Assembly (NCBI GenBank): GCA_964629635.1
Contig: CAZVQS010000002.1
Coordinates: 43,644 to 75,643 of the forward strand
Source of the DNA: an uncultured Gammaproteobacteria bacterium
Lineage (GTDB): Bacteria > Patescibacteriota > Microgenomatia > UBA1406 > GWC2-37-13
DNA length: 32,000 bases
Direction: 5' to 3'
The translations under genes were made by a program, and so were the position numbers. Shown one piece after another: positions 6,040-18,855 of this stretch. Every line of letters starts with the position of its first letter. Position 1 is the first letter of the stretch. The notes below the pieces were generated by a model, which made no database searches, was not told the DNA's origin, and saw only the letters and a list, made by a program, of their open reading frames with translations.

Positions 6040-6142
6040 CTGTTTGAAAGGGTCCGATGCAGCCGGGTGCAAAATATAAACCTAATTGATAATTAAACTG
6101 TCCTAAAGGCTACCGAAGAAAATCACCACGGTTACTGTCGTA

Positions 6143-6892
6143 TTATTCTCCTCCCAGCAGTTTGATTGTATACATAATTAGAATTCCCGTGAAAAATATG
6201 CCGAAAGAGGTCAATGATTTTCTCATGTCAGTTTCTTTTCTGATTTCCGGCATAAGATCCGACGCTGCTATATATATAAAACCTCCTGCCGCAAAGGGAA
6301 GAAGATAAGCGGTAATATTTTCAATCCGGAAAGAAAGGAAATATCCAGTCACTCCACCCATAACAGCAGTCAATGCTACCAGGAAATTGGAAATAAGAGC
6401 TTTTTTGCGGCTAAATCCCGAGTAAAGAAGTACGCCAAAATCACCAATTTCCTGAGGTATTTCGTGGAGCGCAATTGCGAAACTGGTAGCTATGCCAAGC
6501 TTAATGTCCATTAAAAAGGTTGAGGCAATGACAAGTCCATCAATAAAATTATGTACGGCGTCCCCAAAAAGATTCATATATCCAAAGGTGTGAACATCAC
6601 AGTGTTTATTATGACAATGACGCCAATGAAGCAGCTTTTCTATCAGAAAGAAGAATACAAAGGACAATAACACTATTAAATACATGTTCCCGGTATCCAG
6701 TTTTTCAGAGGCTTCAGGTAAAAGGTGAATAAAAGCTCCACCCATCAAGGCGCCTGCCGAAAGAGAAATCAGGAATAAAAGAAACCTGGAAAGTGTTTTT
6801 TCTTTCAACGAAAGGGTGAATACGCCTATTAAAGAACCGAGGCTTATTAAAAAATTGGCGGCAACAATATAAAGAAGTTTTTCCATATGCAT
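6143..6892 (-). CDS. ZIP family divalent metal (zinc/iron) transporter, ZupT-like
   Basis: HEIPQEIGDFGVLL motif, His-rich loop HWRHCHNKHCDVH, multi-pass membrane profile. The ATG at 6892 overlaps the upstream stop by one base. Confidence 0.8.
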   Translation of the reverse strand: MHMEKLLYIVAANFLISLGSLIGVFTLSLKEKTLSRFLLFLISLSAGALMGGAFIHLLPEASEKLDTGNMYLIVLLSFVFFFLIEKLLHWRHCHNKHCDVHTFGYMNLFGDAVHNFIDGLVIASTFLMDIKLGIATSFAIALHEIPQEIGDFGVLLYSGFSRKKALISNFLVALTAVMGGVTGYFLSFRIENITAYLLPFAAGGFIYIAASDLMPEIRKETDMRKSLTSFGIFFTGILIMYTIKLLGGE

Positions 6893-7197
6893 CAATGATT
6901 ATGCTTGCCATAGCAAAGCTCGCCCTGTTCAATCCTGATTGCTTTTCCTGAGACAATCGCATGCGCGATTTTTTTCAATGCCCTATTGAGGATTCTGGTA
7001 AAAGTGGATTGGGAAATATTCATTTGTTTGGATGACTCGATCTGATCCAGCTCATCAACTTCGTAAAGTTTCAACGCTTCTAACTCATCCGGTAACAGCA
7101 ATACTTCATCAAGATCCCGCATCGGAATACCTTGAGGTTTAAAATACAATGTGCTGGCTTTAAACCTTAAACAACGGTGTATTACTGGTCTGGGCAT
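6892..7197 (-). CDS. DUF134 (UPF0251) predicted DNA-binding protein
   Basis: MPRP...FKPQGIP N-terminus, followed by the LEALKLYEVDELDQIESSKQMNISQSTFTRILNRALKKIA helix-turn-helix region. Confidence 0.7.
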   Translation of the reverse strand: MPRPVIHRCLRFKASTLYFKPQGIPMRDLDEVLLLPDELEALKLYEVDELDQIESSKQMNISQSTFTRILNRALKKIAHAIVSGKAIRIEQGELCYGKHNH

Positions 7198-7276
7198 ACA
7201 TCGGGAAAATAATTAACAGGAATCCCTACTTAGTTTTTGCACATAAAGATCTTCTAAGCAGGATTTTCTGTCCTTA

Positions 7277-7498
7277 TTATTTCATCTCTGCAATTTCTTT
7301 TTCCACATCTTCAAGTTCTTTCTTTAAATTGCTCACGTAGGCTTCAAGATCATTCTTCGTTGGATTTTTGTCTATCCGATCACAGCATCGCACCATTCTG
7401 CGGCCGAATCCTTGCCCCCTTCCTTTTCCGCATGTTCCCATTCCGCGACCTGTCATCGGTCCTTTTCCCTGCGGTCCGGTTCCGTCTAGATTTGGCAT
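7277..7498 (-). CDS. DUF5320 family small protein
   Basis: N-terminus is MPNLDGTGPQGKGPMTGRGMGTCGKGRGQGFGRR, with a coiled C-terminal tail. A strong SD (GGAGGTG, plus-strand 7507-7513) sits 8 nt from the ATG. Confidence 0.7.
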   Translation of the reverse strand: MPNLDGTGPQGKGPMTGRGMGTCGKGRGQGFGRRMVRCCDRIDKNPTKNDLEAYVSNLKKELEDVEKEIAEMK

Positions 7499-7521
7499 AT
7501 GTATTTCACCTCCTCTCAGTA

Positions 7522-7567
7522 ATTATGAATATGTATTCATAATATAGCGGGGAATGGTAATTGTCAA
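7522..7567 (-). promoter_or_regulatory. promoter plus palindromic operator of the DUF5320-DUF134-ZIP operon
   Basis: On the minus strand: TTGACA (7567-7562), 17-nt spacer, TATTAT (7544-7539). A perfect 10-bp inverted repeat, ATTATGAATA-TG-TATTCATAAT (7522-7543), covers the -10 box and the start region. Confidence 0.55.
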
Positions 7568-7619
7568 GGAGATTCTGTAATTTAGCCCCGGACGTATACC
7601 GCCAGACTAGTCAATCACC

Positions 7620-7718
7620 ATGAAGGTCTTACTGCTCTTTTATGCCGTAATGCGCCTGATCTTGTACGTAAATCAGAGTTGTGAGGGGCCTCTAATTAAA
7701 TTAACGCAACTGAATTAA
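7620..7718 (+). CDS. candidate small ORF (32 aa, hydrophobic N-terminus); weak support
   Basis: Translates to MKVLLLFYAVMRLILYVNQSCEGPLIKLTQLN. No obvious SD. Lies in a relatively GC-rich patch of the island intergenic region. Confidence 0.15.
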   Translation: MKVLLLFYAVMRLILYVNQSCEGPLIKLTQLN

Positions 7719-7728
7719 GGAGTTCTCG

Positions 7729-7794
7729 ATGAAGCAGGCTCACAATTTGTCCAGAGCAATTGAGGGCGTTAGAACCTTTTATGCTCAGATTTAG
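7729..7794 (+). CDS. candidate small ORF (21 aa) with a strong Shine-Dalgarno site
   Basis: AAGGAG (7717-7722), 6-nt spacer, ATG at 7729. Translates to MKQAHNLSRAIEGVRTFYAQI. No recognisable family. Confidence 0.25.
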   Translation: MKQAHNLSRAIEGVRTFYAQI

Positions 7795-7826
7795 TATAGT
7801 AAATAAGATCCAGTTTCAATATCTTC

Positions 7827-7858
7827 TTGACATTCATTATCTTATCTCATAAGATAAT
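7827..7858 (+). promoter_or_regulatory. marR-family gene promoter with a palindromic operator
   Basis: TTGACA (7827-7832), 17-nt spacer, TAAGAT (7850-7855), then 6 nt to the ATG at 7862. A perfect inverted repeat, ATTATCTTAT-CTC-ATAAGATAAT (7836-7858), overlaps the spacer and -10 box. Confidence 0.55.
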
Positions 7859-7861
7859 AGT

Positions 7862-8305
7862 ATGAATACCTCAAAACAAATGATGTTGAATCAATTTATG
7901 CAATCCTTGATGAGGATTCGCCGTATTGCTGAACAGTCATTCATTGTTCCCATAAAAGATGGAAGTGTTACGTTACTTCAAAATCAAGCTCTTCTCCACT
8001 TGAAAGATCATCCAGGTTGTACGGTAGGTGAGCTTTCGGCAAAATTAGGACTTTCATCTTCCTCCGCAGCTCAGCTAATCGAAAGATTAATAAATTTAGA
8101 TGCAATAAAGAAGACGCTAGATGAAGATGATCGTCGAATTACCCACCTCTCACTTACAAAAAAAGGCCATGACCAAACGGAGGTAGCTCACAGTATGTTA
8201 GCAGAGAAAGTTGGGAATGTTTTTTCACAGATGCCTGAGGAGGATTTAAAGGAAGTCGTTCGTATTTTTACCAATTTTCTCAAAAAAATAGAGAAACAGA
8301 AATAG
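7862..8305 (+). CDS. MarR family transcriptional regulator
   Basis: 147 aa with a winged-HTH region TVGELSAKLGLSSSSAAQLIERLINLDAIKK...DDRRITHLSLTKKG. Confidence 0.8.
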   Translation: MNTSKQMMLNQFMQSLMRIRRIAEQSFIVPIKDGSVTLLQNQALLHLKDHPGCTVGELSAKLGLSSSSAAQLIERLINLDAIKKTLDEDDRRITHLSLTKKGHDQTEVAHSMLAEKVGNVFSQMPEEDLKEVVRIFTNFLKKIEKQK

Positions 8306-8306
8306 A

Positions 8307-9245
8307 ATGAAAAAAATAGTAATAATAATATTTCTTTTAATTGTGGGATTATTTGTGATAAGAATGATAATTCTCAAAAAACCCAGCACAGAGATACTGT
8401 ACACGATAATAAAAGAGGACTTGGTAGAAACTGTACAGGTAAGCGGTACATTTAATAAAACTGCATCTGATGAGGAAAAGGCTCTTGCATATCTTAATTA
8501 CCAAAATGCAATAAGTGCTGTTAAAACAAGTCAACAAAACAAACTTGCTGCAGATGCGGCTATGTGGACAAAACAGAAGGCTTTACTAGATGCGCAAAAT
8601 GGCGTTGATTATAAGAATAATAACACTACCAATACTATAACGAAAAAAGACTATACAGATTTGGAGAAATATAGCATCGATGGTACGCTAACTCAGGCAC
8701 AAAAAGATTTTTTAGCATCGGAAACAAAATATAAAGAAGCAGACATTGCTATCGGAGCGGCAAATGCTCAGGTTGCAGCAACACAGATTGCCTATGAAGA
8801 TACATTTCTCAATGAGCCCGTTATATCAGCAGACATCAATGAAATGTATTTGCCACGAATATCTATCGGTCAAAAAACAAAAATAATCTTTGACGCATTT
8901 AATAATCAAACAGTGACGGGACTTGTTAAAAGTATTGATACCATAGGAGCAGTGAAAGGAGGAGTTGTCACATATGAAATAAAGGTTTCACTGGATACAA
9001 TTCCATCCGGGGTACGGGCAAATATGACTGCGCTTATTACGATAGAGACGCTCCGTAAAAACAGTATTCTTTCAGTTCCAAATAGTGCCATTATTGCCAA
9101 AAACAATAAAAGCTATGTTGAACAGATAGTAAAACAAAAGAAAAATGAAGTAGAGGTAAGCACGGGGGTAAAAGGTTTAGTCAAAACTGAAATTATAAAA
9201 GGACTGGGTGAAAAGGATGTGATTGTTGCAAACCCAAATGATTAA
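8307..9245 (+). CDS. HlyD/MacA-like periplasmic adaptor (membrane fusion) protein
   Basis: N-terminal TM segment, long coiled-coil-like central region, C-terminal beta-barrel-like segment. Positioned directly upstream of an FtsX permease and ABC ATPase. Confidence 0.65.
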   Translation: MKKIVIIIFLLIVGLFVIRMIILKKPSTEILYTIIKEDLVETVQVSGTFNKTASDEEKALAYLNYQNAISAVKTSQQNKLAADAAMWTKQKALLDAQNGVDYKNNNTTNTITKKDYTDLEKYSIDGTLTQAQKDFLASETKYKEADIAIGAANAQVAATQIAYEDTFLNEPVISADINEMYLPRISIGQKTKIIFDAFNNQTVTGLVKSIDTIGAVKGGVVTYEIKVSLDTIPSGVRANMTALITIETLRKNSILSVPNSAIIAKNNKSYVEQIVKQKKNEVEVSTGVKGLVKTEIIKGLGEKDVIVANPND

Positions 9246-10521
9246 TAGGTTATTCAAGACAAATAAATCTTTTGAGGTTGGGTTTTTTCTTGCTGTTTCC
9301 GATATTAAACGGAGCAATCCCTGGACTACCGGCTTGATTATTTTTGTAATGATGCTTACGTTTTTTAATATGATTCTCCTGAATGGGATATTGATTGGAC
9401 TTGCTCAAGGAATGACGGGAACGTTCAAACTATACTATGCATCTGATGTGCTCATTACCCCCTCATTAAACAAAAAGAGCATAGAAGATACAAATATGAT
9501 TTTAGCGGTTATTGACAGTTTGCCAACAGTAAAAAATGTTACTGCTCGGTATACCGGTCAGGCAACTCTTGAATACGGGTATCAAACAAAACTTAAGGAA
9601 TCTGATAGTGCAGAAAGCGTGAATTCATTACTAGTAGGGATAAATCCAGAGAAAGAAAATAAAGTAACCCACCTGTCTCAAATGATTGTTGCAGGACAGT
9701 ATCTTGAACCAACTGATATGGATGCGGTAGTTCTTGGATCTGATTTAATTTCAAAATATACAACAGCCAGAGGATCTTCGGAGTCTGATGGGAGTAAGAT
9801 ATTAAAAACCGCAGATGTTGGTTCAAAACTTAGATTGACTGTGAACAATATTCAAAAAGACGTTGTGATTAAGGGAGTTGTAAGTACTAATAATTCGACT
9901 GTTGATAGTCGCATATATATGACAGAAACGGCGGCAAGACAGTTATTTGATAGGAAAGGGCTTAACGTAAACGAAATAGCAATTACACTAACAGACAATT
10001 CGTCTGATGCTGCTGCAAAATCCTATATTAAAAATAATTTGAATGACGCAAGTAATGTGTTAATTCAAACATCAAAAGAAGCAATCCCGAGTGGAATTAG
10101 TCAAATGATTAAAACCTTTACCCTCCTTGGAGTTATGGTAGCTGCAATTGCTCTGTTTGTTGGAGCGATCACTATATTTATAGTGATCTATGTCAATGCA
10201 ATAACTCGACGTAAATTTATTGGGATTCTTAAAGCAGTTGGAGTTCCAAGTAGTGCAATAGAAATTTCCTACATATTTCAGGCTCTTTTCTATGCAATTT
10301 TTGGAATTATTATTGCAAGTATTCTCCTCTTGGGATTTCTCACTCCCTATTTTATTCTGCATCCTATACATTATCCTGTGGGAACGGGATCACTTGCGAT
10401 TACCCTAAATGATGTTTTGACTCGGGCAATTATTTTGTTGATTACCGCCTTTATTTCTGGACTAGTTCCAGCTTGGCTTGTTACGAAGCAAAATACTTTA
10501 GATGCAATTTTAGGAAGATAA
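9223..10521 (+). CDS. ABC transporter permease, FtsX/MacB-like
   Basis: One N-terminal TM segment, a large extracytoplasmic domain, then a C-terminal FtsX-type 3-TM bundle (ITRRKFIGILKAVGVPSSAIE). The start is uncertain: TTG at 9223 with AAGGA upstream, or ATG at 9238. Confidence 0.75.
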   Translation: MLQTQMINRLFKTNKSFEVGFFLAVSDIKRSNPWTTGLIIFVMMLTFFNMILLNGILIGLAQGMTGTFKLYYASDVLITPSLNKKSIEDTNMILAVIDSLPTVKNVTARYTGQATLEYGYQTKLKESDSAESVNSLLVGINPEKENKVTHLSQMIVAGQYLEPTDMDAVVLGSDLISKYTTARGSSESDGSKILKTADVGSKLRLTVNNIQKDVVIKGVVSTNNSTVDSRIYMTETAARQLFDRKGLNVNEIAITLTDNSSDAAAKSYIKNNLNDASNVLIQTSKEAIPSGISQMIKTFTLLGVMVAAIALFVGAITIFIVIYVNAITRRKFIGILKAVGVPSSAIEISYIFQALFYAIFGIIIASILLLGFLTPYFILHPIHYPVGTGSLAITLNDVLTRAIILLITAFISGLVPAWLVTKQNTLDAILGR

Positions 10522-10523
10522 CT

Positions 10524-11195
10524 ATGATTATTGTAAACAATATAGTGAAAAAATTTAAGATGGGTACGGTTGAGAGTATCGTATTAAAAGGAATAAACTT
10601 TACTGTGCCTAAAGGACAGTTTCTTGCAATTACTGGGAGATCAGGATCTGGGAAAAGTACACTTCTCTATCAATTGGGACTTCTAGATCACCCGACTGAA
10701 GGCTCAATCACTATCAATGATGAGGTGGTAACAAACCTGTATGGTTCAAAACGAATTGAATTTCGTCGAAAAAATCTCGGATATATTTTCCAGGATTATG
10801 CAATCCTTCCAACGCTTACTGCTAAGGAAAATGTCATTCTACCTATGATGATGGGAGATGATGCTAAAAATAGCATTGAACAAAGGGCAAAAGAGGCATT
10901 GGAAAAAGTTGGTTTAGAGAAGCAGATTAATAATCTACCTTCTCAACTATCAGGAGGTGAACAGCAGCGAGTAGGTATTGCTCGGGCAATTGCACACAAT
11001 CCTAGTATTATCTTTGCTGACGAGCCAACAGCTAACCTTGATACTGAATCTTCAAAGGTCGTACTAGATATTTTTCTTAAGCTGAATAATGAGGGACAAA
11101 CCATCATCATGGTTACTCATGAACCCGAGTATGCAAAATTAGCAGACCGGATAATTGAAATTAGCGATGGAAAGATAATTTCCGACAAAAAATAG
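10524..11195 (+). CDS. ABC transporter ATP-binding protein (MacB/LolD-like)
   Basis: Walker A GRSGSGKST, signature LSGGEQQR, Walker B IIFADEPT. The ATG at 10524 is preceded by AGGAAG; the longer listed ORF (10473) overlaps the permease. Confidence 0.9.
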   Translation: MIIVNNIVKKFKMGTVESIVLKGINFTVPKGQFLAITGRSGSGKSTLLYQLGLLDHPTEGSITINDEVVTNLYGSKRIEFRRKNLGYIFQDYAILPTLTAKENVILPMMMGDDAKNSIEQRAKEALEKVGLEKQINNLPSQLSGGEQQRVGIARAIAHNPSIIFADEPTANLDTESSKVVLDIFLKLNNEGQTIIMVTHEPEYAKLADRIIEISDGKIISDKK

Positions 11196-11224
11196 GTTGT
11201 TGAGATTTCAATTTAAAATAGGTG

Positions 11225-11545
11225 TCAAGCTTTCATCATCGATAATAACATCTTAAATTGTTTATTTGCTTTAAGGGCGTGAGGTTCACCTGCTGGCATA
11301 TGAATAATTTCTCCTGTTTTAACTTTATTGCAAATTCCAGAGATTGTTATTTCTGCTTCGCCATCAACTATGTATACTAAAGCATCATATGGAGTCTTAT
11401 GTTCACTTAATCCCTGTCCTTGAGCAAATGCAAACAGAGTAATGGTCCCTGAATTATTTTTTAAGATTTCTTTACTAACAATGGATCCTTCTTGATAGCT
11501 TATATGTTGATCGAGGGAAAAATGAAATGTTGATGATTTATTCAT
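11225..11545 (-). CDS. cupin domain protein
   Basis: 106 aa. Cupin core: GLSEHKTPYDALVYIVDGEAEITISG...GEIIHMPAGEPHALKA. Confidence 0.7.
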   Translation of the reverse strand: MNKSSTFHFSLDQHISYQEGSIVSKEILKNNSGTITLFAFAQGQGLSEHKTPYDALVYIVDGEAEITISGICNKVKTGEIIHMPAGEPHALKANKQFKMLLSMMKA

Positions 11546-11643
11546 AAATTAAGTATATCAAACCGAGCAAACTGAATAAGAGGCTTAAATGCTGAAGTAG
11601 TTTATGTCAATATAGATTGTCCTGACGCTCTAAATCAATCAAG

Positions 11644-11726
11644 TCCAGGGGGAGGGATTCGAACCCCCGTAGGCATACGCCAGCAGATTTACAGTCTGCC
11701 CCCGTTGGCCACTTGGGTACCCCTGG
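11644..11726 (-). tRNA. tRNA-Tyr (anticodon GUA), type II with a long variable arm; CCA not encoded
   Basis: Hand-folded minus-strand read: CCAGGGG UA CCC AAGUGGCCAAC GGG G GCAGA CUGUAAA UCUGC UGGCGUAUGCCUAC GGGGG UUCGAAU CCCUC CCCCUGG A. A TGn-TATAAT promoter (hexamer at plus-strand 11736-11741) lies 9 nt upstream of the 5' end. Confidence 0.85.
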
Positions 11727-12734: not shown

Positions 12735-13184
12735 ATGTTCATCCATCCCGTGTATGCACAGTGTCCGGTCTGTGTCGTGACCGTTGGCGGTGGACTCTTT
12801 ATCGCCAAGAAGCTGGGCATAGACGACCTTTTGGTTTCCATCTGGCTTTCCGGCCTCAACACCGCATTCGCGTTCTGGTTTGCGTCCATGATGAAAAACA
12901 GGATACTGAAAAACGGCTACGGCTGGGCTATTTCATTTTTCGTGCTCACCCTCGGGTACCTGGCCATGTCCGGACAGACCGGCCACCCGGGCAATACGTT
13001 TTTCGGGATCGACAAGACGGTGTTCGGCATGACCTTGGGATTTGCGGTGTCGCTTCTGGCGATAGGAACCGACCGGTTTCTCCGCTCCAAAAACAAGGGG
13101 AAAGTGTTTTTCCCGTACCAGAAAGTGATCGTGCCCCTCATCTATCTTGTTTTCACCAGCGGTCTTTTTATGTTACTCGTTTAG
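12735..13184 (+). CDS. hypothetical multi-pass membrane protein with an N-terminal CxxC motif
   Basis: 149 aa. CPVC near the N-terminus, followed by about four hydrophobic segments. No family recognised. Confidence 0.55.
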   Translation: MFIHPVYAQCPVCVVTVGGGLFIAKKLGIDDLLVSIWLSGLNTAFAFWFASMMKNRILKNGYGWAISFFVLTLGYLAMSGQTGHPGNTFFGIDKTVFGMTLGFAVSLLAIGTDRFLRSKNKGKVFFPYQKVIVPLIYLVFTSGLFMLLV

Positions 13185-13200
13185 ACAATACGCAGGCAAT

Positions 13201-13737
13201 ATGGCGCAATCCGATATACAGTCATTCATGGACAAAATCAAGAAAATGGAGCAGGGACACAAGCTCGATCTTTCATCAGGCGAGGACCTGTCGATTGCAA
13301 TCATGAACCTCATTTCGATCGAAGAGCACCTCTTTTTTTCCGGCAGCAAGACCGGCGAAACAAAGTATTTTGACCTTCTGGATGAAGTGCGCAGGATGCG
13401 CGTATCGCTTTTGAAGGAGATAATAAAGGAATACGAAGGCGAAGTATGGTGTATCAGCAAACATCTCCTAGCCGCGTCCATGCGCGTCATGGAAGTGGGA
13501 ACCAAAGCCTTGAAAAACGGGGATAAGGAGAAAGCCGCGGAGTATTTCAGGAAGTCGTATGATCTTTATAATCTGTTCTGGGGGCTCAATCTCGGTATCG
13601 TGAAGCCGGGCGAGATGAAAAAAACGGGAGAACCGCCCCGCGAAAAGCCTATTGCATATCGGGATGAAAAAGGGACGTCGCTGCTTGGTAAAATGGGAGT
13701 GATGATCGGCAAGGTGCTTGACTGCTGCCGCGAATAA
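13201..13737 (+). CDS. hypothetical soluble protein (178 aa) ending in a CC motif
   Basis: The ATG at 13201 is preferred over the listed 13147 start, which overlaps the previous gene. Predicted helical; C-terminus is ...VLDCCRE. The stop is 4 nt before hypC. Confidence 0.55.
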   Translation: MAQSDIQSFMDKIKKMEQGHKLDLSSGEDLSIAIMNLISIEEHLFFSGSKTGETKYFDLLDEVRRMRVSLLKEIIKEYEGEVWCISKHLLAASMRVMEVGTKALKNGDKEKAAEYFRKSYDLYNLFWGLNLGIVKPGEMKKTGEPPREKPIAYRDEKGTSLLGKMGVMIGKVLDCCRE

Positions 13738-13741
13738 ACCT

Positions 13742-13912
13742 ATGTGTTTCCTTATACCCCGCAAGGTGCAAAAAATCCAAGGTAAGAAAGCGCTCCTGTC
13801 AAACGGCTTATGGGCGCTCATGGATCCGCAGGCAGGTATAATAAAAGAAGGGGACGAAGTCCTCGTATTCGGGAATTTAATAATTGGCCATGCTCATGAA
13901 AAATCAAAATAA
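13742..13912 (+). CDS. hypC: HypC/HupF-family hydrogenase assembly chaperone (short form, 56 aa)
   Basis: Starts MCFLIPRKVQKI (Met-Cys N-terminus, the C-x-x-I-P-x-K-V pattern of HypC). Contains GDEVLVFGNLII, equivalent to GDxVLVHxG. Hydrogenase genes lie nearby. Confidence 0.65.
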   Translation: MCFLIPRKVQKIQGKKALLSNGLWALMDPQAGIIKEGDEVLVFGNLIIGHAHEKSK

Positions 13913-13913
13913 A

Positions 13914-14789
13914 ATGCAGGGTGTGCTCTGGGCTTTGTTTACCGCAACCGTTTCCGGTTTTGCCATATTCTATTCGAAAGTGTCGGTTGCCAAAATAGAT
14001 CCGCTTGTCCTTGCAACCGCCCGCAACCTGTTTGTCGGATTCGCGTTCGCGTCGCTACTTTTGCTGTCCTCCAAGCTGAGGGAGTTGACGGAGCTGAAAA
14101 AAAGCAGCCTTGCCAAACTTATTCTCATCGGTACCATCGGCGGCAGCATACCGTTTTATCTCTTTTTTACCGGCATCCGGCTCATCGGCGCCCAACAGGC
14201 GAACCTGATCCATAAATCGCTTTTCGTGTGGGTTGCGGTGCTGGCAGCCATTTTTCTCAAGGAGAAAATCAATGTCCGGCATATCGTATCGGGGCTTTTC
14301 ATAATATCCGGAACCTATGTGTTTGCGCCCTTTGGGCTTTCCTTGGGTAGGGGCGAGCTTCTGGTCCTTGCCGCAACACTCATGTGGTCGGTCGAAAACA
14401 TCATCGCAAAAAAAGTCTTGAGGGAAGTATCGTCCGAAACGACCGGTCTCTTCCGCATGGGCTTGGGGGGTCTGGTCCTTTTTCTCCTGACGGTCGTATC
14501 CGGAAAAGCACCGCTTCTTTTCAGTCTTGACCGTACGCAGCTTGCAACCGTAATGATCGGAGGCGGCATCCTGTTTTTCTACGTGTACGGATGGTTCAAG
14601 GCATTGCGGCTTGCACCTGCGAGCCTGGTTACCGCGGTTCTCACCTTCTCCCTGGTTGTCGGAAACCTGTTAAACGGTGCGTTTGCCGGCATGCGGCTGA
14701 CCGCAGGCGACATATACTCAACAGCGCTCGTTGCCGCGGGTGCCTGCCTGGTTGCCGGCTTCGGCATCAAGGAACTGAAACATCAATGA
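13914..14789 (+). CDS. EamA/DMT superfamily transporter
   Basis: About ten hydrophobic segments in two EamA-like halves. The ATG at 13914 (MQGVLWALF...) sits 1 nt after the hypC stop; the listed ORF begins at a TTG (13884). Confidence 0.7.
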   Translation: MQGVLWALFTATVSGFAIFYSKVSVAKIDPLVLATARNLFVGFAFASLLLLSSKLRELTELKKSSLAKLILIGTIGGSIPFYLFFTGIRLIGAQQANLIHKSLFVWVAVLAAIFLKEKINVRHIVSGLFIISGTYVFAPFGLSLGRGELLVLAATLMWSVENIIAKKVLREVSSETTGLFRMGLGGLVLFLLTVVSGKAPLLFSLDRTQLATVMIGGGILFFYVYGWFKALRLAPASLVTAVLTFSLVVGNLLNGAFAGMRLTAGDIYSTALVAAGACLVAGFGIKELKHQ

Positions 14790-15523
14790 TCGACAAACAG
14801 GGTTTGCTCTTGTGCGCGCGCTATTCGGTGGCCCCCAACTATTTCGGATACTGCGGTCCCGGGGAAAATGCCAGCCTGGTCGACCATCTGAAAGAGGGGG
14901 TTGCGGATCCGGAAATGCGGTCCATCCTCAAGGAATTTGAAACCCTGCACCTGTATCTTAAGCTCATTGCCCGCGAAAACGGGATAGAAGATGCGTTTGA
15001 CCGGCGGGTCGTTGACGCGTACTGGGTCGGTAACGGGCTTTTGGACCGCGTTGGAAACGGCGATTATGCGGCATTGCTTGATGAGAAGTTCCATATCGGC
15101 CGGAAACTGGAGCATAAAGCGTACGGACTACTGAAACACAAAGTCCTTACCCGCCGCCTGTATCCGCACCACTCCTTCCACGTGTTCAATATTTTCAAAC
15201 GCACCGGCCATGACCCCGCATTTCATACCCTCAAAACGATGGACGAATGCCGTATCGGATGGGGGAAAGTCGTTAAAACCGCTCCGGATTCGGTTACCTG
15301 CAGGACGCGCCCCCTTGTGTTCACGGACAACCGGCTGGGTTTCGGGCGGGCGGTCGAGCGTACCCTGCATAGGGAATACCGGGGCAAGCAAATTTTGGAC
15401 AGGGTGAAAGTCGGGGATTGGGTCAGTTTCCACTGGGGGCATGTGTGCGATATCATTTCGCCGAAGCAGGTCGCGTCGCTGAAAGCGTATACGGTCCGAG
15501 CTGTCGATTATTTCAACTCATGA
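14786..15523 (+). CDS. hypothetical protein with a C-terminal HypC-like domain (245 aa)
   Basis: The ATG at 14786 overlaps the EamA stop (ATGA). The N-terminal ~150 aa is unrecognised (ARYSVAPNYFGYCGPGEN). The C-terminal ~90 aa, ECRIGWGKVVK...VGDWVSFHWGHVCDIISPKQVASLKAY, parallels the HypC pattern MC-IGVPGQI...VGxWVLVHVGFA. Confidence 0.55.
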   Translation: MIDKQGLLLCARYSVAPNYFGYCGPGENASLVDHLKEGVADPEMRSILKEFETLHLYLKLIARENGIEDAFDRRVVDAYWVGNGLLDRVGNGDYAALLDEKFHIGRKLEHKAYGLLKHKVLTRRLYPHHSFHVFNIFKRTGHDPAFHTLKTMDECRIGWGKVVKTAPDSVTCRTRPLVFTDNRLGFGRAVERTLHREYRGKQILDRVKVGDWVSFHWGHVCDIISPKQVASLKAYTVRAVDYFNS

Positions 15524-15906
15524 AACGCATTTATGTATTCGGCAACCCGTTCCTCAAAGAGGACGGCGTGTCCCTCACGCTTGCCCAGTCGATGCAAAAA
15601 TCGTTTCCCTTCCTTGAATTCGTCGTCATGGACCCGAACGACAATTTTCCCCCGGAGGGGGAGCGGGATCTTTGTATCCTTGATGCGGTAAAAGGGATCG
15701 GCAAGGTTATGCTTCTTGATTTCAACGACCTTTCAACCGTTGAAAAAAGCCCGGTTTCGCCGCATGATTACGACCTGCTGCTGCATCTTCTTTTGCTCAA
15801 GAAGATGAAACGGATCGATGAGGTCAGGATCATAGGTGTTCCCTACGGTGCGGCTGACAGCGGTGTTGCGGAAGAGGTGCGCATGCTTATTTCCAGTTTA
15901 CTTTGA
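15520..15906 (+). CDS. hydrogenase maturation endopeptidase (HycI/HyaD-like)
   Basis: The ATG at 15520 overlaps the upstream stop (ATGA). VFGNPFLKEDG, ILDAVKG and SPHDYDL match the three metal-ligand regions (GDDG, VDA, TH) of HycI-type proteases. Confidence 0.6.
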   Translation: MKRIYVFGNPFLKEDGVSLTLAQSMQKSFPFLEFVVMDPNDNFPPEGERDLCILDAVKGIGKVMLLDFNDLSTVEKSPVSPHDYDLLLHLLLLKKMKRIDEVRIIGVPYGAADSGVAEEVRMLISSLL

Positions 15907-17221
15907 GGAAATGGGACGCGCATGACATGCAGGGGTCAAACGCCCGGATGAATTTTTCCACTTCATAAATGATCTTGTGCTGCGTTGCCCCTAAGACGAG
16001 AAGCTCCTCCACGATTTCCCGGATGGCGCGTTCCATGATTACCTGGTTCTGGCCGGTCGGAACCACGATTTCGCCTTTTCGCACCATGCCGTTTGACGCT
16101 ATTTCCAGCTTGTAGTAAAGGGTGCCGCGCGGCGCCTCGATCACCCCCACTCCGAATCCTTCCCTTGCCACCGGCTTTACCGGCGCCTCGGGTTTTATCT
16201 CCATGATGCCGTTTATCAGTTCCACTGCCTGGTCAATCGAGTGGAGGATTTCCACCGCCTGGGCGAGGTTGTTGTAAAACAGGTTTTTTGTCGGGATGAG
16301 CTTCAGGTATTTTGCGGCGCTTTCCTTCGTTTGCGCATGGAGGTACTGTCCGCCCAGACTCAAGCGGGCGATTGCGCCGACCATCATGAGGTCGCCGTCG
16401 AAATTGAATCCGCGCGCCTGCGAATAGGGGATAACCATGCCGTTGAGGTGGTTGCCGAGGTCCTGTTCCTCGATCGTTTCACCCTTTGACGTTTTGATTT
16501 CCCCGTCAAGGTACGAAAAATCCGGGGAAACGAGCGCGGAGAATACGAACGGCGCGTGCACCTCATGGAAAAAGGAAGTATTGGCGAAAAGCTCGATGAG
16601 TTTCAGTATTTTGGGCCGGATAGCCTTAAGGCCGGGTACGAGCGCTTTCAGGTCCTCGGTTTTGGGAACCTTGAGGAATCCCCCGACCTGGGGAGTAGGC
16701 GCATGCACGGAACGGCCGCCGACCGCAATAGACAACTTGTTTCCCGTTTCTTTCACCTCAAACGCATCATCCAGAAGTTCATGCTCAAGGGGATTCTCCA
16801 TGTCAAAGTCAAGGATGGAGTTTTTCTTGAACACGTCAGGAAGCGCGAATATGTAAAGATGCAGTGCATGGTCCCGGATAATGAGTCCGTGGTACAGGAG
16901 CTTGCGCAAAAGCGCGGTCTGGGGAGAGGGCACGAGCCCGTATGCGTTTTCGACCGCTTTAATGGAGGCAAGCAGATGCGCATTGGAACAGGTTCCGCAG
17001 ATGCGGCTCACGAGCGCGGGTACTGCAGTCGCCGGTTTGCCCTGGATTGCCTGGGTATAAAAGCGTTTCCATTCCGAAATGCTGAACTTGAGATCCTTAA
17101 CCCGGTTTTCCTCGATACGGATATCTAGGGAGGCGGCCCCTTCGATCTTGGATATCTCGTCCAGTTTGATCGAATAGGTCCCTTTGGAAATGTCGCTGAT
17201 GTCAAAATTGCTGTCGTGCAT
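15887..17221 (-). CDS. [NiFe] hydrogenase large subunit, cytosolic group 3-like
   Basis: 444 aa. N-terminal Ni-binding motif RICGTCSNAH and C-terminal DPCMSCASH, followed by a 7-aa tail (FLKVNWK). Confidence 0.85.
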   Translation of the reverse strand: MHDSNFDISDISKGTYSIKLDEISKIEGAASLDIRIEENRVKDLKFSISEWKRFYTQAIQGKPATAVPALVSRICGTCSNAHLLASIKAVENAYGLVPSPQTALLRKLLYHGLIIRDHALHLYIFALPDVFKKNSILDFDMENPLEHELLDDAFEVKETGNKLSIAVGGRSVHAPTPQVGGFLKVPKTEDLKALVPGLKAIRPKILKLIELFANTSFFHEVHAPFVFSALVSPDFSYLDGEIKTSKGETIEEQDLGNHLNGMVIPYSQARGFNFDGDLMMVGAIARLSLGGQYLHAQTKESAAKYLKLIPTKNLFYNNLAQAVEILHSIDQAVELINGIMEIKPEAPVKPVAREGFGVGVIEAPRGTLYYKLEIASNGMVRKGEIVVPTGQNQVIMERAIREIVEELLVLGATQHKIIYEVEKFIRAFDPCMSCASHFLKVNWK

Positions 17222-17223
17222 AG

Positions 17224-17721
17224 TTATGGTTTTACTGCGGTGTCTTCGCCAAGACCCGCGATGCTTTTATTCACCAGGTCGATAAAAATCTGTTCGTTCA
17301 TGGGGCAACCGGGTACGTTTGCGTCAACCGGGACGATGTCTGCGAGCTTCCTGACCGTTTCGCTGTAGGGAAAGGCATCAAGAATGGGCCTGATTTCGCT
17401 CTTTTGGCTTTCGTTGAAAAAATTTCTCTGGTTGGAGGGCGATCCGTTGACCGCGCATGATCCGATTGCGACTAGAATTGCCGCCTTAGCGCGGATTTCC
17501 TTCAGTTTCGCCTCCTGGGAAGCGGAGCTGATAGCCCCCTCGACAAACGCGACATCCATTTGCTGGATGTCCTTGGTGTCGTCCCTGCGAAGCGTCCGCG
17601 CATGTACGAATTCGAGTTTTGCGAACCACTCCCGGTAATATCTGTTGAGTATTTCGGTGAACATGATGGTGGAGCCTTCACAGCCGGTGAACGAAAACAG
17701 CCCGATCCGGAGTTTCCTCAT
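17224..17721 (-). CDS. [NiFe] hydrogenase small subunit, minimal single-cluster type (165 aa)
   Basis: Shows FTGCEGS, IGSCAVNG and VPGCP, the positions of the proximal-cluster ligands. The stop is 2 nt before the large-subunit ATG. Confidence 0.8.
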   Translation of the reverse strand: MRKLRIGLFSFTGCEGSTIMFTEILNRYYREWFAKLEFVHARTLRRDDTKDIQQMDVAFVEGAISSASQEAKLKEIRAKAAILVAIGSCAVNGSPSNQRNFFNESQKSEIRPILDAFPYSETVRKLADIVPVDANVPGCPMNEQIFIDLVNKSIAGLGEDTAVKP

Positions 17722-17793
17722 ATCATCATTCTATCACGGGCGGGACCGATTGTTTTTACATCAACAGGCAGGCATATCTGCTATCATGGATAT

Positions 17794-18855
17794 ATGACCC
17801 TTACCGAGGTGTCCTATTTCAGTCGCAAGCTCGCGCCTTTTTTCATCCTTGCCTTTGTCGTGGTACTTATCATGTTTTACACGATAAAACTGTTCTTCCT
17901 GTTTGCGGAAATGAACCGGCCGGAAGATCTGCCTATCGAGACGGTCTTCAACGAATTGAAGCCTATTGAGATCGCAACCGCGTCAAACAGCGCCGGGCAT
18001 TCCTACGTGATCGATACCGTCGATGGAGAACCGATTACCGCGACCGCAACCGCAAAAGTGTTCATGCTTCCCGAAAGCAAATTCCGGTTCGGCTACCGCG
18101 AAAAAATATACCTCATGGCAAAAACATTCGGGTTCGAACCGGAGATAGAACACAAGCTTGAAAACAAGACAGAGGCGGTTTTCGACGACGGAAAAAAGAA
18201 GCTACGGATCGATATCAACAATTTCAATTTCAAATTCGATACCGACATCACACACAGTCCGGAGCTTTTCGAAAAAAACGGGGCTCCGAACAAGGAAACT
18301 GCCCAGAACCGGGCGGTCGACTTCCTCAAGTCGTTTGACCGGTATCCGGAAGATCTGGCAAAAGGCCGTATGAACGTGATTTTCCTCGAGTACGACAAGG
18401 CAGCAAGCAAAACCGGGGTTCTTGCCGACAATATCGGCTCCAACATGGTCGAGGTTGACTTTTACCGCGCGGACATCGACCAGTATCCGATCGTGTCTTC
18501 AAGCTATTTCAACAGCCACAACTATGTGACCATGGTGGTGACGGAGTTCGATTATAAGGTGGTAAGCGCACGCATCAGTTTCTTCGAGAAGTCCGAGGGA
18601 CAGGTCGGCATTTATCCGGTTATCGACGGGCATGCCGCCCTTGAAAAACTGGCGACAGGCAGCGGATTTATCGTGTCGGGTGCAAATATTCCAAAAAAGG
18701 AAATAGCTATCAAGAGGATGTTTTTGGGTTACTACGATCCGGACGTGTACCAGTCCTACCTCCAGCCGGTGTATGTGTTCCTGGGGGACGATAATTTTGC
18801 GGCATATGTGCCGGCTATCACGGATGAATGGCTGATCGATTACTCCAAGCTGTAG
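17794..18855 (+). CDS. hypothetical membrane-anchored extracytoplasmic protein (353 aa)
   Basis: The ATG at 17794 is preferred because a -10-like TATCAT sits 6 nt upstream. One N-terminal TM segment (LAPFFILAFVVVLIMFYTIKLFFLF). The remainder has no recognised family. Confidence 0.6.
   Translation: MTLTEVSYFSRKLAPFFILAFVVVLIMFYTIKLFFLFAEMNRPEDLPIETVFNELKPIEIATASNSAGHSYVIDTVDGEPITATATAKVFMLPESKFRFGYREKIYLMAKTFGFEPEIEHKLENKTEAVFDDGKKKLRIDINNFNFKFDTDITHSPELFEKNGAPNKETAQNRAVDFLKSFDRYPEDLAKGRMNVIFLEYDKAASKTGVLADNIGSNMVEVDFYRADIDQYPIVSSSYFNSHNYVTMVVTEFDYKVVSARISFFEKSEGQVGIYPVIDGHAALEKLATGSGFIVSGANIPKKEIAIKRMFLGYYDPDVYQSYLQPVYVFLGDDNFAAYVPAITDEWLIDYSKL

Follow-up and report, generated by a model that had tools for sequence, protein, structure and literature searches.

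We analyzed a stretch of 32,000 nucleotides (positions 43,644–75,643 of contig CAZVQS010000002.1, assembly GCA_964629635.1; in the following, the window) that encodes a two-subunit [NiFe]-hydrogenase on its minus strand. The original prediction, made from the sequence alone, had described a unit of two genes, i.e., for a small subunit of 165 amino acids (aa) and a large subunit of 444 aa, and its open reading frames (ORFs) and coordinates agree with our analysis (Table 1). It had also placed the flanking genes on the opposite strand. This holds for both sides, but the convergent genes downstream encode hydrogenase accessory proteins and are thus not irrelevant to the enzyme. A functional link to the nearby ldh gene, suggested there as well, was not upheld: ldh adjacency recurred in one other locus, and we hence rejected ldh as a conserved functional link of the hydrogenase.

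An in-frame TAG at 17731–17733, four codons upstream of the small-subunit ATG, excludes a longer N-terminus and therefore additional cysteines hidden by a mis-called start. Sequencing or assembly error was likewise ruled out. The identical 165-aa protein was found in three further assemblies (SRR12489244, SRR12489245 and SRR12489248), and an orthologue from another sample, with an 84% identical small subunit, retains the motif G-C-E-G-S. We hence conclude that the three-cysteine state of the small subunit is real.

Table 1. Features of the hydrogenase locus; positions refer to the window.
Feature	Position	Strand	Evidence
Small subunit, 165 aa, proximal-cluster domain only	17224–17721	minus	ORF; Pfam Oxidored_q6, E 1.7e-21
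N-terminal cluster-binding loop G13-C14-E15-G16-S17; Ser17 in the column of the second CxxC cysteine and of FrhG Asp60	17671–17685	minus	alignment
G-S-C89-A-V-N-G, third cluster ligand	17443–17463	minus	C89 in 119/120 homologues
Loop F-P-Y-S-E-T-V (family F-K-Y-K-E-K-V; three conserved lysines gone)	17353–17373	minus	homologue comparison
P-G-C139-P-M, fourth canonical ligand position	17299–17313	minus	C139 in 120/120 homologues
[NiFe] large subunit, 444 aa	15887–17221	minus	ORF; Pfam NiFeSe_Hases, E 1e-28
Maturation endopeptidase, HycI/HybD family	15520–15906	plus	Pfam HycI, 24.6 bits (cut-off 23); TIGR00072, E 3e-6, below its cut-off
DUF6390 protein, 245 aa	14786–15523	plus	Pfam, E 1.6e-58
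EamA/DMT-family membrane transporter, 301 aa	13884–14789	plus	Pfam EamA, E 3e-32
HypC-type chaperone, 56 aa, start M-C-F-L-I-P	13742–13912	plus	profile of 20 orthologues
180-aa protein	13195–13737	plus	no family match
Membrane protein	12735–13184	plus	no family match
352-aa protein with N-terminal transmembrane helix	17797–18855	plus	no family match

Structural subunits and their relatives

The large subunit carries the motifs L1 (RICGTCSNAH, 16976–17005) and L2 (DPCMSCASH, 15911–15937), which satisfy the group 3b patterns RxCGxCxxxH and DPCxxCxxH and are nearly invariant among 81 large subunits. Its only cysteines, at positions 75, 78, 431 and 434, all lie within L1 and L2, and a C-terminal tail of seven residues extends beyond the L2 histidine. 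HydA and ShyA were the top matches; against NCBIfam HydA (NF040832) the protein scored 250 bits, far under the equivalog cut-off of 880. The closest relatives of solved structure are group 3b sulfhydrogenase α subunits of Thermococcus and Pyrococcus, with E values of 1e-65 to 1e-66 (5yxy, 1.4e-66), which bears out the earlier assignment to a group-3-type enzyme.

By direct reading, the small subunit contains exactly three cysteines, at positions 14, 89 and 139, as had been stated. It comprises the proximal-cluster domain only, i.e., medial and distal clusters are missing, again in agreement with the prediction. Its AlphaFold2 (AF2) model (pLDDT 86) had its best Foldseek matches in HydS of the bifurcating HydABCSL complex (7t2r_E) and HoxY of group 3d (5xf9_C), with TM-scores of 0.80/0.74 listed for either structure, and in the N-terminal domain of the δ subunit of Pyrococcus furiosus soluble hydrogenase I (SHI). 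HoxY and HydS, too, have about 180 aa and consist of the proximal-cluster domain only. Unlike the window protein, they possess four cysteines and work in complexes with NuoE/F/G-type modules, and the window large subunit is nearer to group 3b than to group 3d.

Among solved structures, P. furiosus SHI (9e1j, 9nez) has the large subunit closest to that of the window. Its δ subunit superposes on the AF2 model through the N-terminal domain, with a TM-score of 0.78, the sequence alignment spanning only δ residues 1–150. In contrast to the window small subunit, δ has about 260 aa, three clusters and the canonical C-Y-G-C, and native SHI is a heterotetramer that uses NADPH. Its αδ heterodimer is active without the diaphorase (PMC3200332); this two-subunit state was engineered in SHI and is natural in the window. 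The small subunits of group 3b HydABGD enzymes in general have about 250–260 aa with three Fe-S clusters, as opposed to 165 aa with three cysteines here. Genes for the NAD(P)-binding γ and the Fe-S β subunits (HydG, HydB) are present neither in the window nor among the recurrent neighbors of about 80 related loci, so that the earlier statement that no diaphorase is co-encoded extends to the relatives.

The enzyme is of a type already known. Jaffe et al. (2020, BMC Biol 18:69, PMC7304191) described two group-3b-related hydrogenase clades specific for the Candidate Phyla Radiation (CPR). In the passages of that paper drawn on here, small subunits of one clade, hyd2, are consistently truncated (mean 164 aa), β and γ subunits are not proximal, a HypC-like family is found close by, and the function is called "uncertain". 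On the features compared, i.e., a CPR host, a truncated small subunit, no β and γ genes and a HypC-like neighbor, the window enzyme matches hyd2; the large subunit finds its best matches in group 3b. Its 165 aa fit the truncated length of about 164 aa, and small-subunit homologues range from 155 to 170 aa. The same passages treat hyd2 as CPR-specific, show same-strand genes only in their neighborhood plots and mention cysteine for Ehr proteins only, not for the small subunit. Two differences emerged. We found the same cluster also in DPANN archaea, for which the paper was not searched, and the family motif C-C-E-D-S is G-C-E-G-S in the window. Beyond this paper, we found no literature on truncated small subunits in Patescibacteria.

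The small subunit has more than 1,100 homologues, the nearest all from CPR or DPANN organisms. In a scan of species-representative genomes, 244 carried the gene, among them Roizman-, Gottesman-, Beckwith-, Chisholm-, Uhr- and Andersenbacteria and Paceibacter for the CPR, and Woese- and Aenigmatarchaeota and Burarchaeum for the DPANN. With Microgenomates-type contigs the window shares a common gene order: DHH, RmuC, RecJ and phosphoribosyltransferase; AspRS, DacA and an unknown gene (352–353 aa); hydrogenase. Many metagenome-assembled genomes of the TPA_asm type that carry this CPR/DPANN-type cluster (L012, L014, L016–L018 and others) are titled "uncultured Gammaproteobacteria" or "Pseudomonadales"; judged by gene content and synteny, these titles are probably placeholders or wrong labels.

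The 352-aa ORF, divergent to the small-subunit gene, shares an overlap with DacA; it keeps this position in Roizmanbacteria-type loci. Compared with its orthologue in locus L090, it shows 98% identity and a ratio of nonsynonymous to synonymous substitution rates (dN/dS) of 0.012, and is thus far more conserved than the hydrogenase genes. A promoter and terminator scan of 13000–18200 was uninformative, with signals no better than in shuffled controls.

Ligand loop of the small subunit

The codons TTC ACC GGC TGT GAA GGC TCC ACC encode F-T-G-C-E-G-S-T, with Ser17 as TCC at 17671–17673. We aligned the protein by HMMER with solved small subunits and by MAFFT with PDB-verified sequences. Both alignments placed C14 on the first and S17 on the second cysteine of the CxxC motif, and hence confirmed the proposed substitution. 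In the aligned column, G13-C14-E-G16-S17 of the window corresponds to C-C-E-D-S in the hyd2 consensus, G-C-F-G-C in HoxY, S-C-Y-G-C in P. furiosus SHI δ, G-C-T-G-D60 in FrhG of Methanothermobacter marburgensis and C45-C46-A-I-E49 in Nqo6 of Thermus thermophilus.

Two known sites have a residue other than cysteine at this position. In FrhG of the F420-reducing hydrogenase (3zfs/4omf), Asp60 has been assigned as a proximal-cluster ligand (PMC3591093). It lies in S-G-C-T-G-D in the same alignment column as Ser17, and the precedent that the original prediction had named is thus valid. FrhG differs from the window protein in that it has Asp where the latter has Ser, carries two more clusters, both in a ferredoxin domain, and is joined by a subunit for FAD/F420. 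The second site is cluster N2 of complex I (NuoB/Nqo6, 2fug_6), where a tandem cysteine is combined with a non-cysteine residue at the old second-cysteine position, as in the hyd2 consensus C13-C14-E-D-S17. Unlike NuoB/Nqo6, the window protein lacks the first tandem cysteine (G13-C14) and is paired with a Ni-Fe large subunit rather than NuoD; its fold is also less similar to NuoB, with a TM-score of about 0.5.

In 120 homologues, the first loop almost always reads F-T-C-C-E-D-S-T (C13 in 116, C14 in 112, E15 in 120, D16 in 116 and S17 in 115); 101 of these proteins have four cysteines and 11 have three. Tandem C13-C14 is the family consensus: C-C-E-D-S occurs in 70 of 86 loci, next to C-S-E-D-S in 11, C-C-E-G-S in one and G-C-E-G-S in three, the latter all copies of the window organism. 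Across the homologues, G13 and G16 co-occur with the canonical knuckle, and C13 pairs with D16. Searching 1.84 billion representative proteins, we obtained related small subunits with the loops C-C-E-G-C (in short and long forms), C-D-E-G-C, G-D-E-G-C (three cysteines), G-C-E-G-D and S-C-E-G-E; the pattern x-C-x-x-S without C13 was absent among the 150 matches listed from this search.

We computed a neighbor-joining tree of the small subunits without the motif columns. C-C-E-D-S is ancestral in this tree and found in deep DPANN and Gottesmanbacteria branches, C-S-E-D-S arose repeatedly and lasted in whole clades, and G-C-E-G-S (window and P0002) is nested, together with two G-C-E-G-C sequences, within the Roizmanbacteria-type crown. 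As judged from these alignments and the tree, the tandem C13-C14 family is a complex-I (NuoB)-like site with its fourth cysteine shifted from position 17 to position 13, the three-cysteine G-C-E-G-S is a lineage-specific derived state of a four-cysteine family and not the family state, and the window loop is derived via C13G and D16G. It is one nucleotide (TCC to TGC) away from a re-created canonical C-x-x-C.

There are sister families of short small subunits with other loops (P0249/P0391, P0250, P0254, P0344 and others). One sister-family pattern, G-D-E-G-C, has three cysteines, with Asp in place of the first. P0391 loci keep the gene order: small subunit, large subunit, a 157-aa protein where the protease would be encoded (no recorded family match), EamA and a protein with a HypC domain.

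Would Ser17 then be a ligand? We think it likely that its oxygen, at the position of FrhG Asp60, completes a cluster held by C14, C89 and C139. It is possible, though we would not expect it, that the enzyme is the same but Ser17 stays uncoordinated. The three cysteines would then bind either a [3Fe-4S] cluster or one of the [4Fe-4S] type, with water or hydroxide, Glu15 or a large-subunit residue on the fourth iron; its potential would be another, possibly with a bias toward H2 oxidation. Three-cysteine C-S-E-D-S subunits are common and stable, so a fourth cysteine is dispensable in the family, and Ser17 is present even where C13 could serve as fourth ligand. Glu15 is invariant (120 of 120 homologues), but it also occurs in canonical C-E-G-C subunits, where it is unneeded as a ligand, and the large subunit offers no extra cysteine. 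Moreover, glycines at positions 13 and 16 restore a G-C-x-G-X knuckle in which residue 17 faces the cluster, as in FrhG with Asp60 and in the G-C-E-G-C relatives.

In comparison with the L090 orthologues, the small-subunit gene gave a dN/dS of 0.11, the large-subunit gene 0.05 and the protease gene 0.10, with dS values of 0.5–1.2. With values of 0.05–0.11 and the motif retained, we conclude that the three-cysteine enzyme is maintained by purifying selection. Other family-invariant residues changed in the window lineage alone: W8 to L (codon 17698–17700) and the K118/K120/K122 patch (F-K-Y-K-E-K-V to F-P-Y-S-E-T-V) in the small subunit, and F309 to I in the large subunit. These changes may be linked to the altered cluster site or to a partner surface. 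Along with the missing canonical ligand, they are also what a decaying or inactive copy would show. This explanation was already disfavored and is hardly credible, given dN/dS values of 0.05–0.11 at dS of 0.5–0.8 with the motif kept, intact reading frames throughout, all four Ni-Fe cysteines and a complete accessory cluster.

Accessory genes

The genes for the endopeptidase, the DUF6390 protein, EamA and HypC form a conserved hydrogenase accessory cluster. The endopeptidase gene converges on the large-subunit gene, with 3' ends overlapping by 20 nucleotides, and is found in 80 of 81 loci with a large subunit. DUF6390 is linked in 59 of 89 loci (phmmer), EamA in 67 of 89; in L093 EamA belongs to the operon of the structural genes, and in two loci the accessory genes are located upstream and share the strand of the structural genes. 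HypC occurs in at least 54 loci, 35 by phmmer and 19 by clustering. As a single sequence, the HypC ORF scored 15.7 bits, under the Pfam cut-off of 28.5. The profile of 20 orthologues, in all of which M1 and C2 are invariant, matched HypC of Thermococcus kodakarensis (2z1c) with an E value of 2e-9. The two genes preceding HypC (Table 1) are present in 13–14 of 89 loci and accompany the cluster in the Roizmanbacteria-type subgroup only.

DUF6390 conserves four cysteines and three histidines (C10, C23, H129, H132, C155, H216 and C221). In its AF2 model (pLDDT 83.6), the N-terminal domain is entirely helical, and the C-terminal part forms a β-barrel with a terminal helix. Foldseek returned generic OB-fold (uS17) matches only, with E values of about 0.008, and no match for the helical domain. 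Similarity to HypC is weak in direct comparison (Pfam E 0.01, PDB profile E 1.2, hhalign probability 14%), but recurrent and inclusive of Cys/His equivalents; HupF_HypC is matched by shorter analogues from DPANN and by a sister protein of 233 aa, and one protein matches both families over the same residues. The Joint Genome Institute (JGI) names some members "hydrogenase maturation factor". We found no literature on DUF6390. From these similarities, DUF6390 probably acts in maturation, with a C-terminal domain related to HypC, rather than as a redox subunit.

The alternative that DUF6390 is the missing third subunit, with a metal or Fe-S center that relays electrons from the small subunit, draws on the linkage in 59 loci, the conserved cysteines and histidines and the helical domain without structural counterpart. 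We consider it improbable. The gene is grouped with those of the protease and HypC rather than with the structural genes and lies on the other strand in most loci; the OB-type barrel with its HypC resemblance, the JGI label and the shorter analogue in DPANN loci also argue for maturation.

Metal-handling genes occur near the cluster in some loci, i.e., a nicotianamine-synthase-like gene, an NRAMP-like transporter (by sequence reading only) and a VIT1/rubrerythrin gene (L006/L007, 5134–5916; L050, 13251–14504; L042, 11754–12623). In nine loci there is an ORF of about 770 aa resembling heavy-metal P-type ATPases, as judged from its N-terminal sequence. Together with the conserved EamA, the metal-handling genes hint, speculatively, at a local Ni/Fe supply.

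Electron partner and proposed mechanism

The enzyme had been called stand-alone. This is correct for the genes in the window, which contain no partner, but relatives present a different picture: some orthologous loci have ferredoxin and flavoprotein neighbors or fusions with modules resembling thioredoxin reductase (TrxR) or NuoF. Because partners are linked in some relatives, "stand-alone" fits the gene content of the window and not necessarily the working enzyme.

Four CPR loci (L059, 13908–15452; L088, 11456–12955; L081; L084) combine the accessory operon with genes for a single-cluster [4Fe-4S] ferredoxin and a 411-aa flavoprotein of the ferredoxin/rubredoxin-reductase type, and NifS and NifU genes come next in three of them. 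In DPANN loci, genes for a ferredoxin with a single cluster and for a TrxR-like flavoprotein sit right next to the protease gene; this flavoprotein has a CxxC motif, and its second Rossmann motif is degenerate in several cases. One related locus has a DUF362 insert.

Fusions were found in two forms. In the archaeal protein P0242 (L093, 10001–11503; also L094; three contigs in all), a TrxR-like flavoprotein is fused to a hyd2 small subunit with the loop F-S-C-C-E-D-S-S, in an operon of HypC, a 166-aa protein, EamA, the fusion and the large subunit. The flavoprotein part has a CVNC motif and a degenerate NAD(P)H motif, and its best PDB match was 5nii_A (E 4e-56), which may be TRi of Desulfovibrio vulgaris, an NAD(P)H-independent enzyme. 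In P0248 (JGI 3300072015, a 6.8-kb contig), a long linker rich in Pro, Thr and Ser connects a NuoF-like module with FMN and 4Fe-4S domains to a hyd2 small subunit that has the loop F-T-C-S-E-D-S-T; this locus also encodes a large subunit, DUF6390 and, where the protease would be expected, a 132-aa protein (no recorded family match).

In experiments, the engineered αδ heterodimer of P. furiosus SHI was active but made no use of NADPH; pyruvate:ferredoxin oxidoreductase passed electrons to it directly (PMC3200332). Taking these observations together, the single cluster of the hyd2 enzymes appears to be a surface-accessible port for ferredoxin or flavin partners that are mostly encoded away from the hydrogenase.

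Could the heterodimer also work truly alone, sensing H2 or reacting directly with a small molecule (for sulfhydrogenases, polysulfide or sulfur has been proposed)? Most loci, the window included, are without a partner gene in cis, and polysulfide reduction is reported for group 3b enzymes. However, the sulfur-reductase and NADPH functions of P. furiosus SHI are attributed to β and γ, which are absent here, no regulator or signaling gene is linked to the locus, and ferredoxin or flavoprotein fusions and neighborhoods arose independently in several lineages. We therefore regard a partner-free enzyme as very improbable.

Building on the observed gene content, motifs, conservation, selection, synteny and fusions, we propose that the window probably encodes a functional, minimal cytoplasmic [NiFe]-hydrogenase of the hyd2 type from a Microgenomates-like CPR bacterium, with a three-cysteine cluster, Ser17 as the likely fourth ligand and a separate electron carrier. 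The group 3b-related large subunit would hold an intact Ni-Fe site with the four L1/L2 cysteines and a cleavable seven-residue tail, and would be matured by the convergent endopeptidase and HypC, probably also with DUF6390 and EamA. The small subunit, a HoxY-like domain alone, would carry one cluster beside the active site. In this lineage the ancestral tandem-cysteine loop C-C-E-D-S became G-C-E-G-S, which leaves C14, C89 and C139 to hold the cluster, with the Ser17 oxygen or else an open or solvent-bound iron site. Since medial and distal clusters are absent, the single cluster must be near the surface and pass electrons directly to the separately encoded carrier. Most likely this would be a small [4Fe-4S] ferredoxin and/or a flavoprotein as linked or fused in relatives, and H2 would be released or taken up during fermentation. 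The recurrence of three-cysteine states, many times as C-S-E-D-S and in a sister family as G-D-E-G-C, is in line with the proposed ligand assignment.

Several points weigh against this proposal. Neither a ferredoxin nor TrxR-like or DUF362 homologues, cysteine-rich small ORFs or another redox partner were found in the 32-kb window, and a partner gene is absent from most related loci as well. Loss of the conserved lysine patch and of the invariant W8 might reflect an altered or weaker contact with the partner. The four-cysteine C-C-E-D-S forms have Ser17 as well, and conservation of this residue is therefore no proof of a ligand role; natural serine ligation of [4Fe-4S] clusters is rare. HypA, B, D, E and F recur in no related locus between about 6 kb upstream and 10 kb downstream of the small-subunit gene, and we found no literature on hypD or hypF in CPR. 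Finally, for the whole family the proposal draws on sequences and predicted models.

A wider idea, which we offer tentatively and think rather unlikely to hold in full, would see the hyd2 core as a modular "H2 plug" of ultra-small CPR and DPANN symbionts. Its fourth ligand would be free to migrate (C-x-x-C to C-C-x-x-C to C-C-x-x-S, and here G-C-E-G-S), and the viable, selected three-cysteine state would be the first natural serine-ligated or open-site proximal cluster in a [NiFe]-hydrogenase. Electrons from H2 would go to ferredoxin or to an NAD(P)H-independent TrxR-like flavoprotein and not to NAD(P), the enzyme acting as an H2:disulfide (thioredoxin) reductase, and DUF6390 and EamA would be new maturation parts that replace some of the Hyp machinery.

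What appears new is the tandem-cysteine motif of the family, the three-cysteine loop of this lineage and the selection on it, the accessory cluster and the partners in relatives. A large part of microbial diversity belongs to CPR bacteria and DPANN archaea, whose energy and redox metabolism is little understood. The two-subunit enzyme is routinely annotated as NADPH-coupled group 3b though it is without an NADPH module; if true, a role linked to ferredoxin or thioredoxin reductase would revise the metabolic reconstructions of hundreds of genomes. Moreover, the loops C-C-E-D-S, C-S-E-D-S, G-C-E-G-S, G-C-E-G-C, C-D-E-G-C and G-D-E-G-C are a natural series on one small scaffold that could be used for testing how proximal-cluster ligation affects potential and catalytic bias. 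A stable natural heterodimer of large and small subunit of about 70 kDa would also be an attractive minimal hydrogenase for engineering.

Apart from the hydrogenase, the window contains a block at 6100–11726 with a GC content of 36–40%, as compared with 50–55% elsewhere. It comprises genes for a ZIP transporter (6143–6895, minus strand), MarR (7862–8305), an HlyD-like protein (8307–9245), FtsX (9223–10521) and an ABC ATPase (10473–11195), and ends at a tRNA-Tyr gene (11643–11726, minus strand). This block looks like an efflux island acquired at the tRNA gene.

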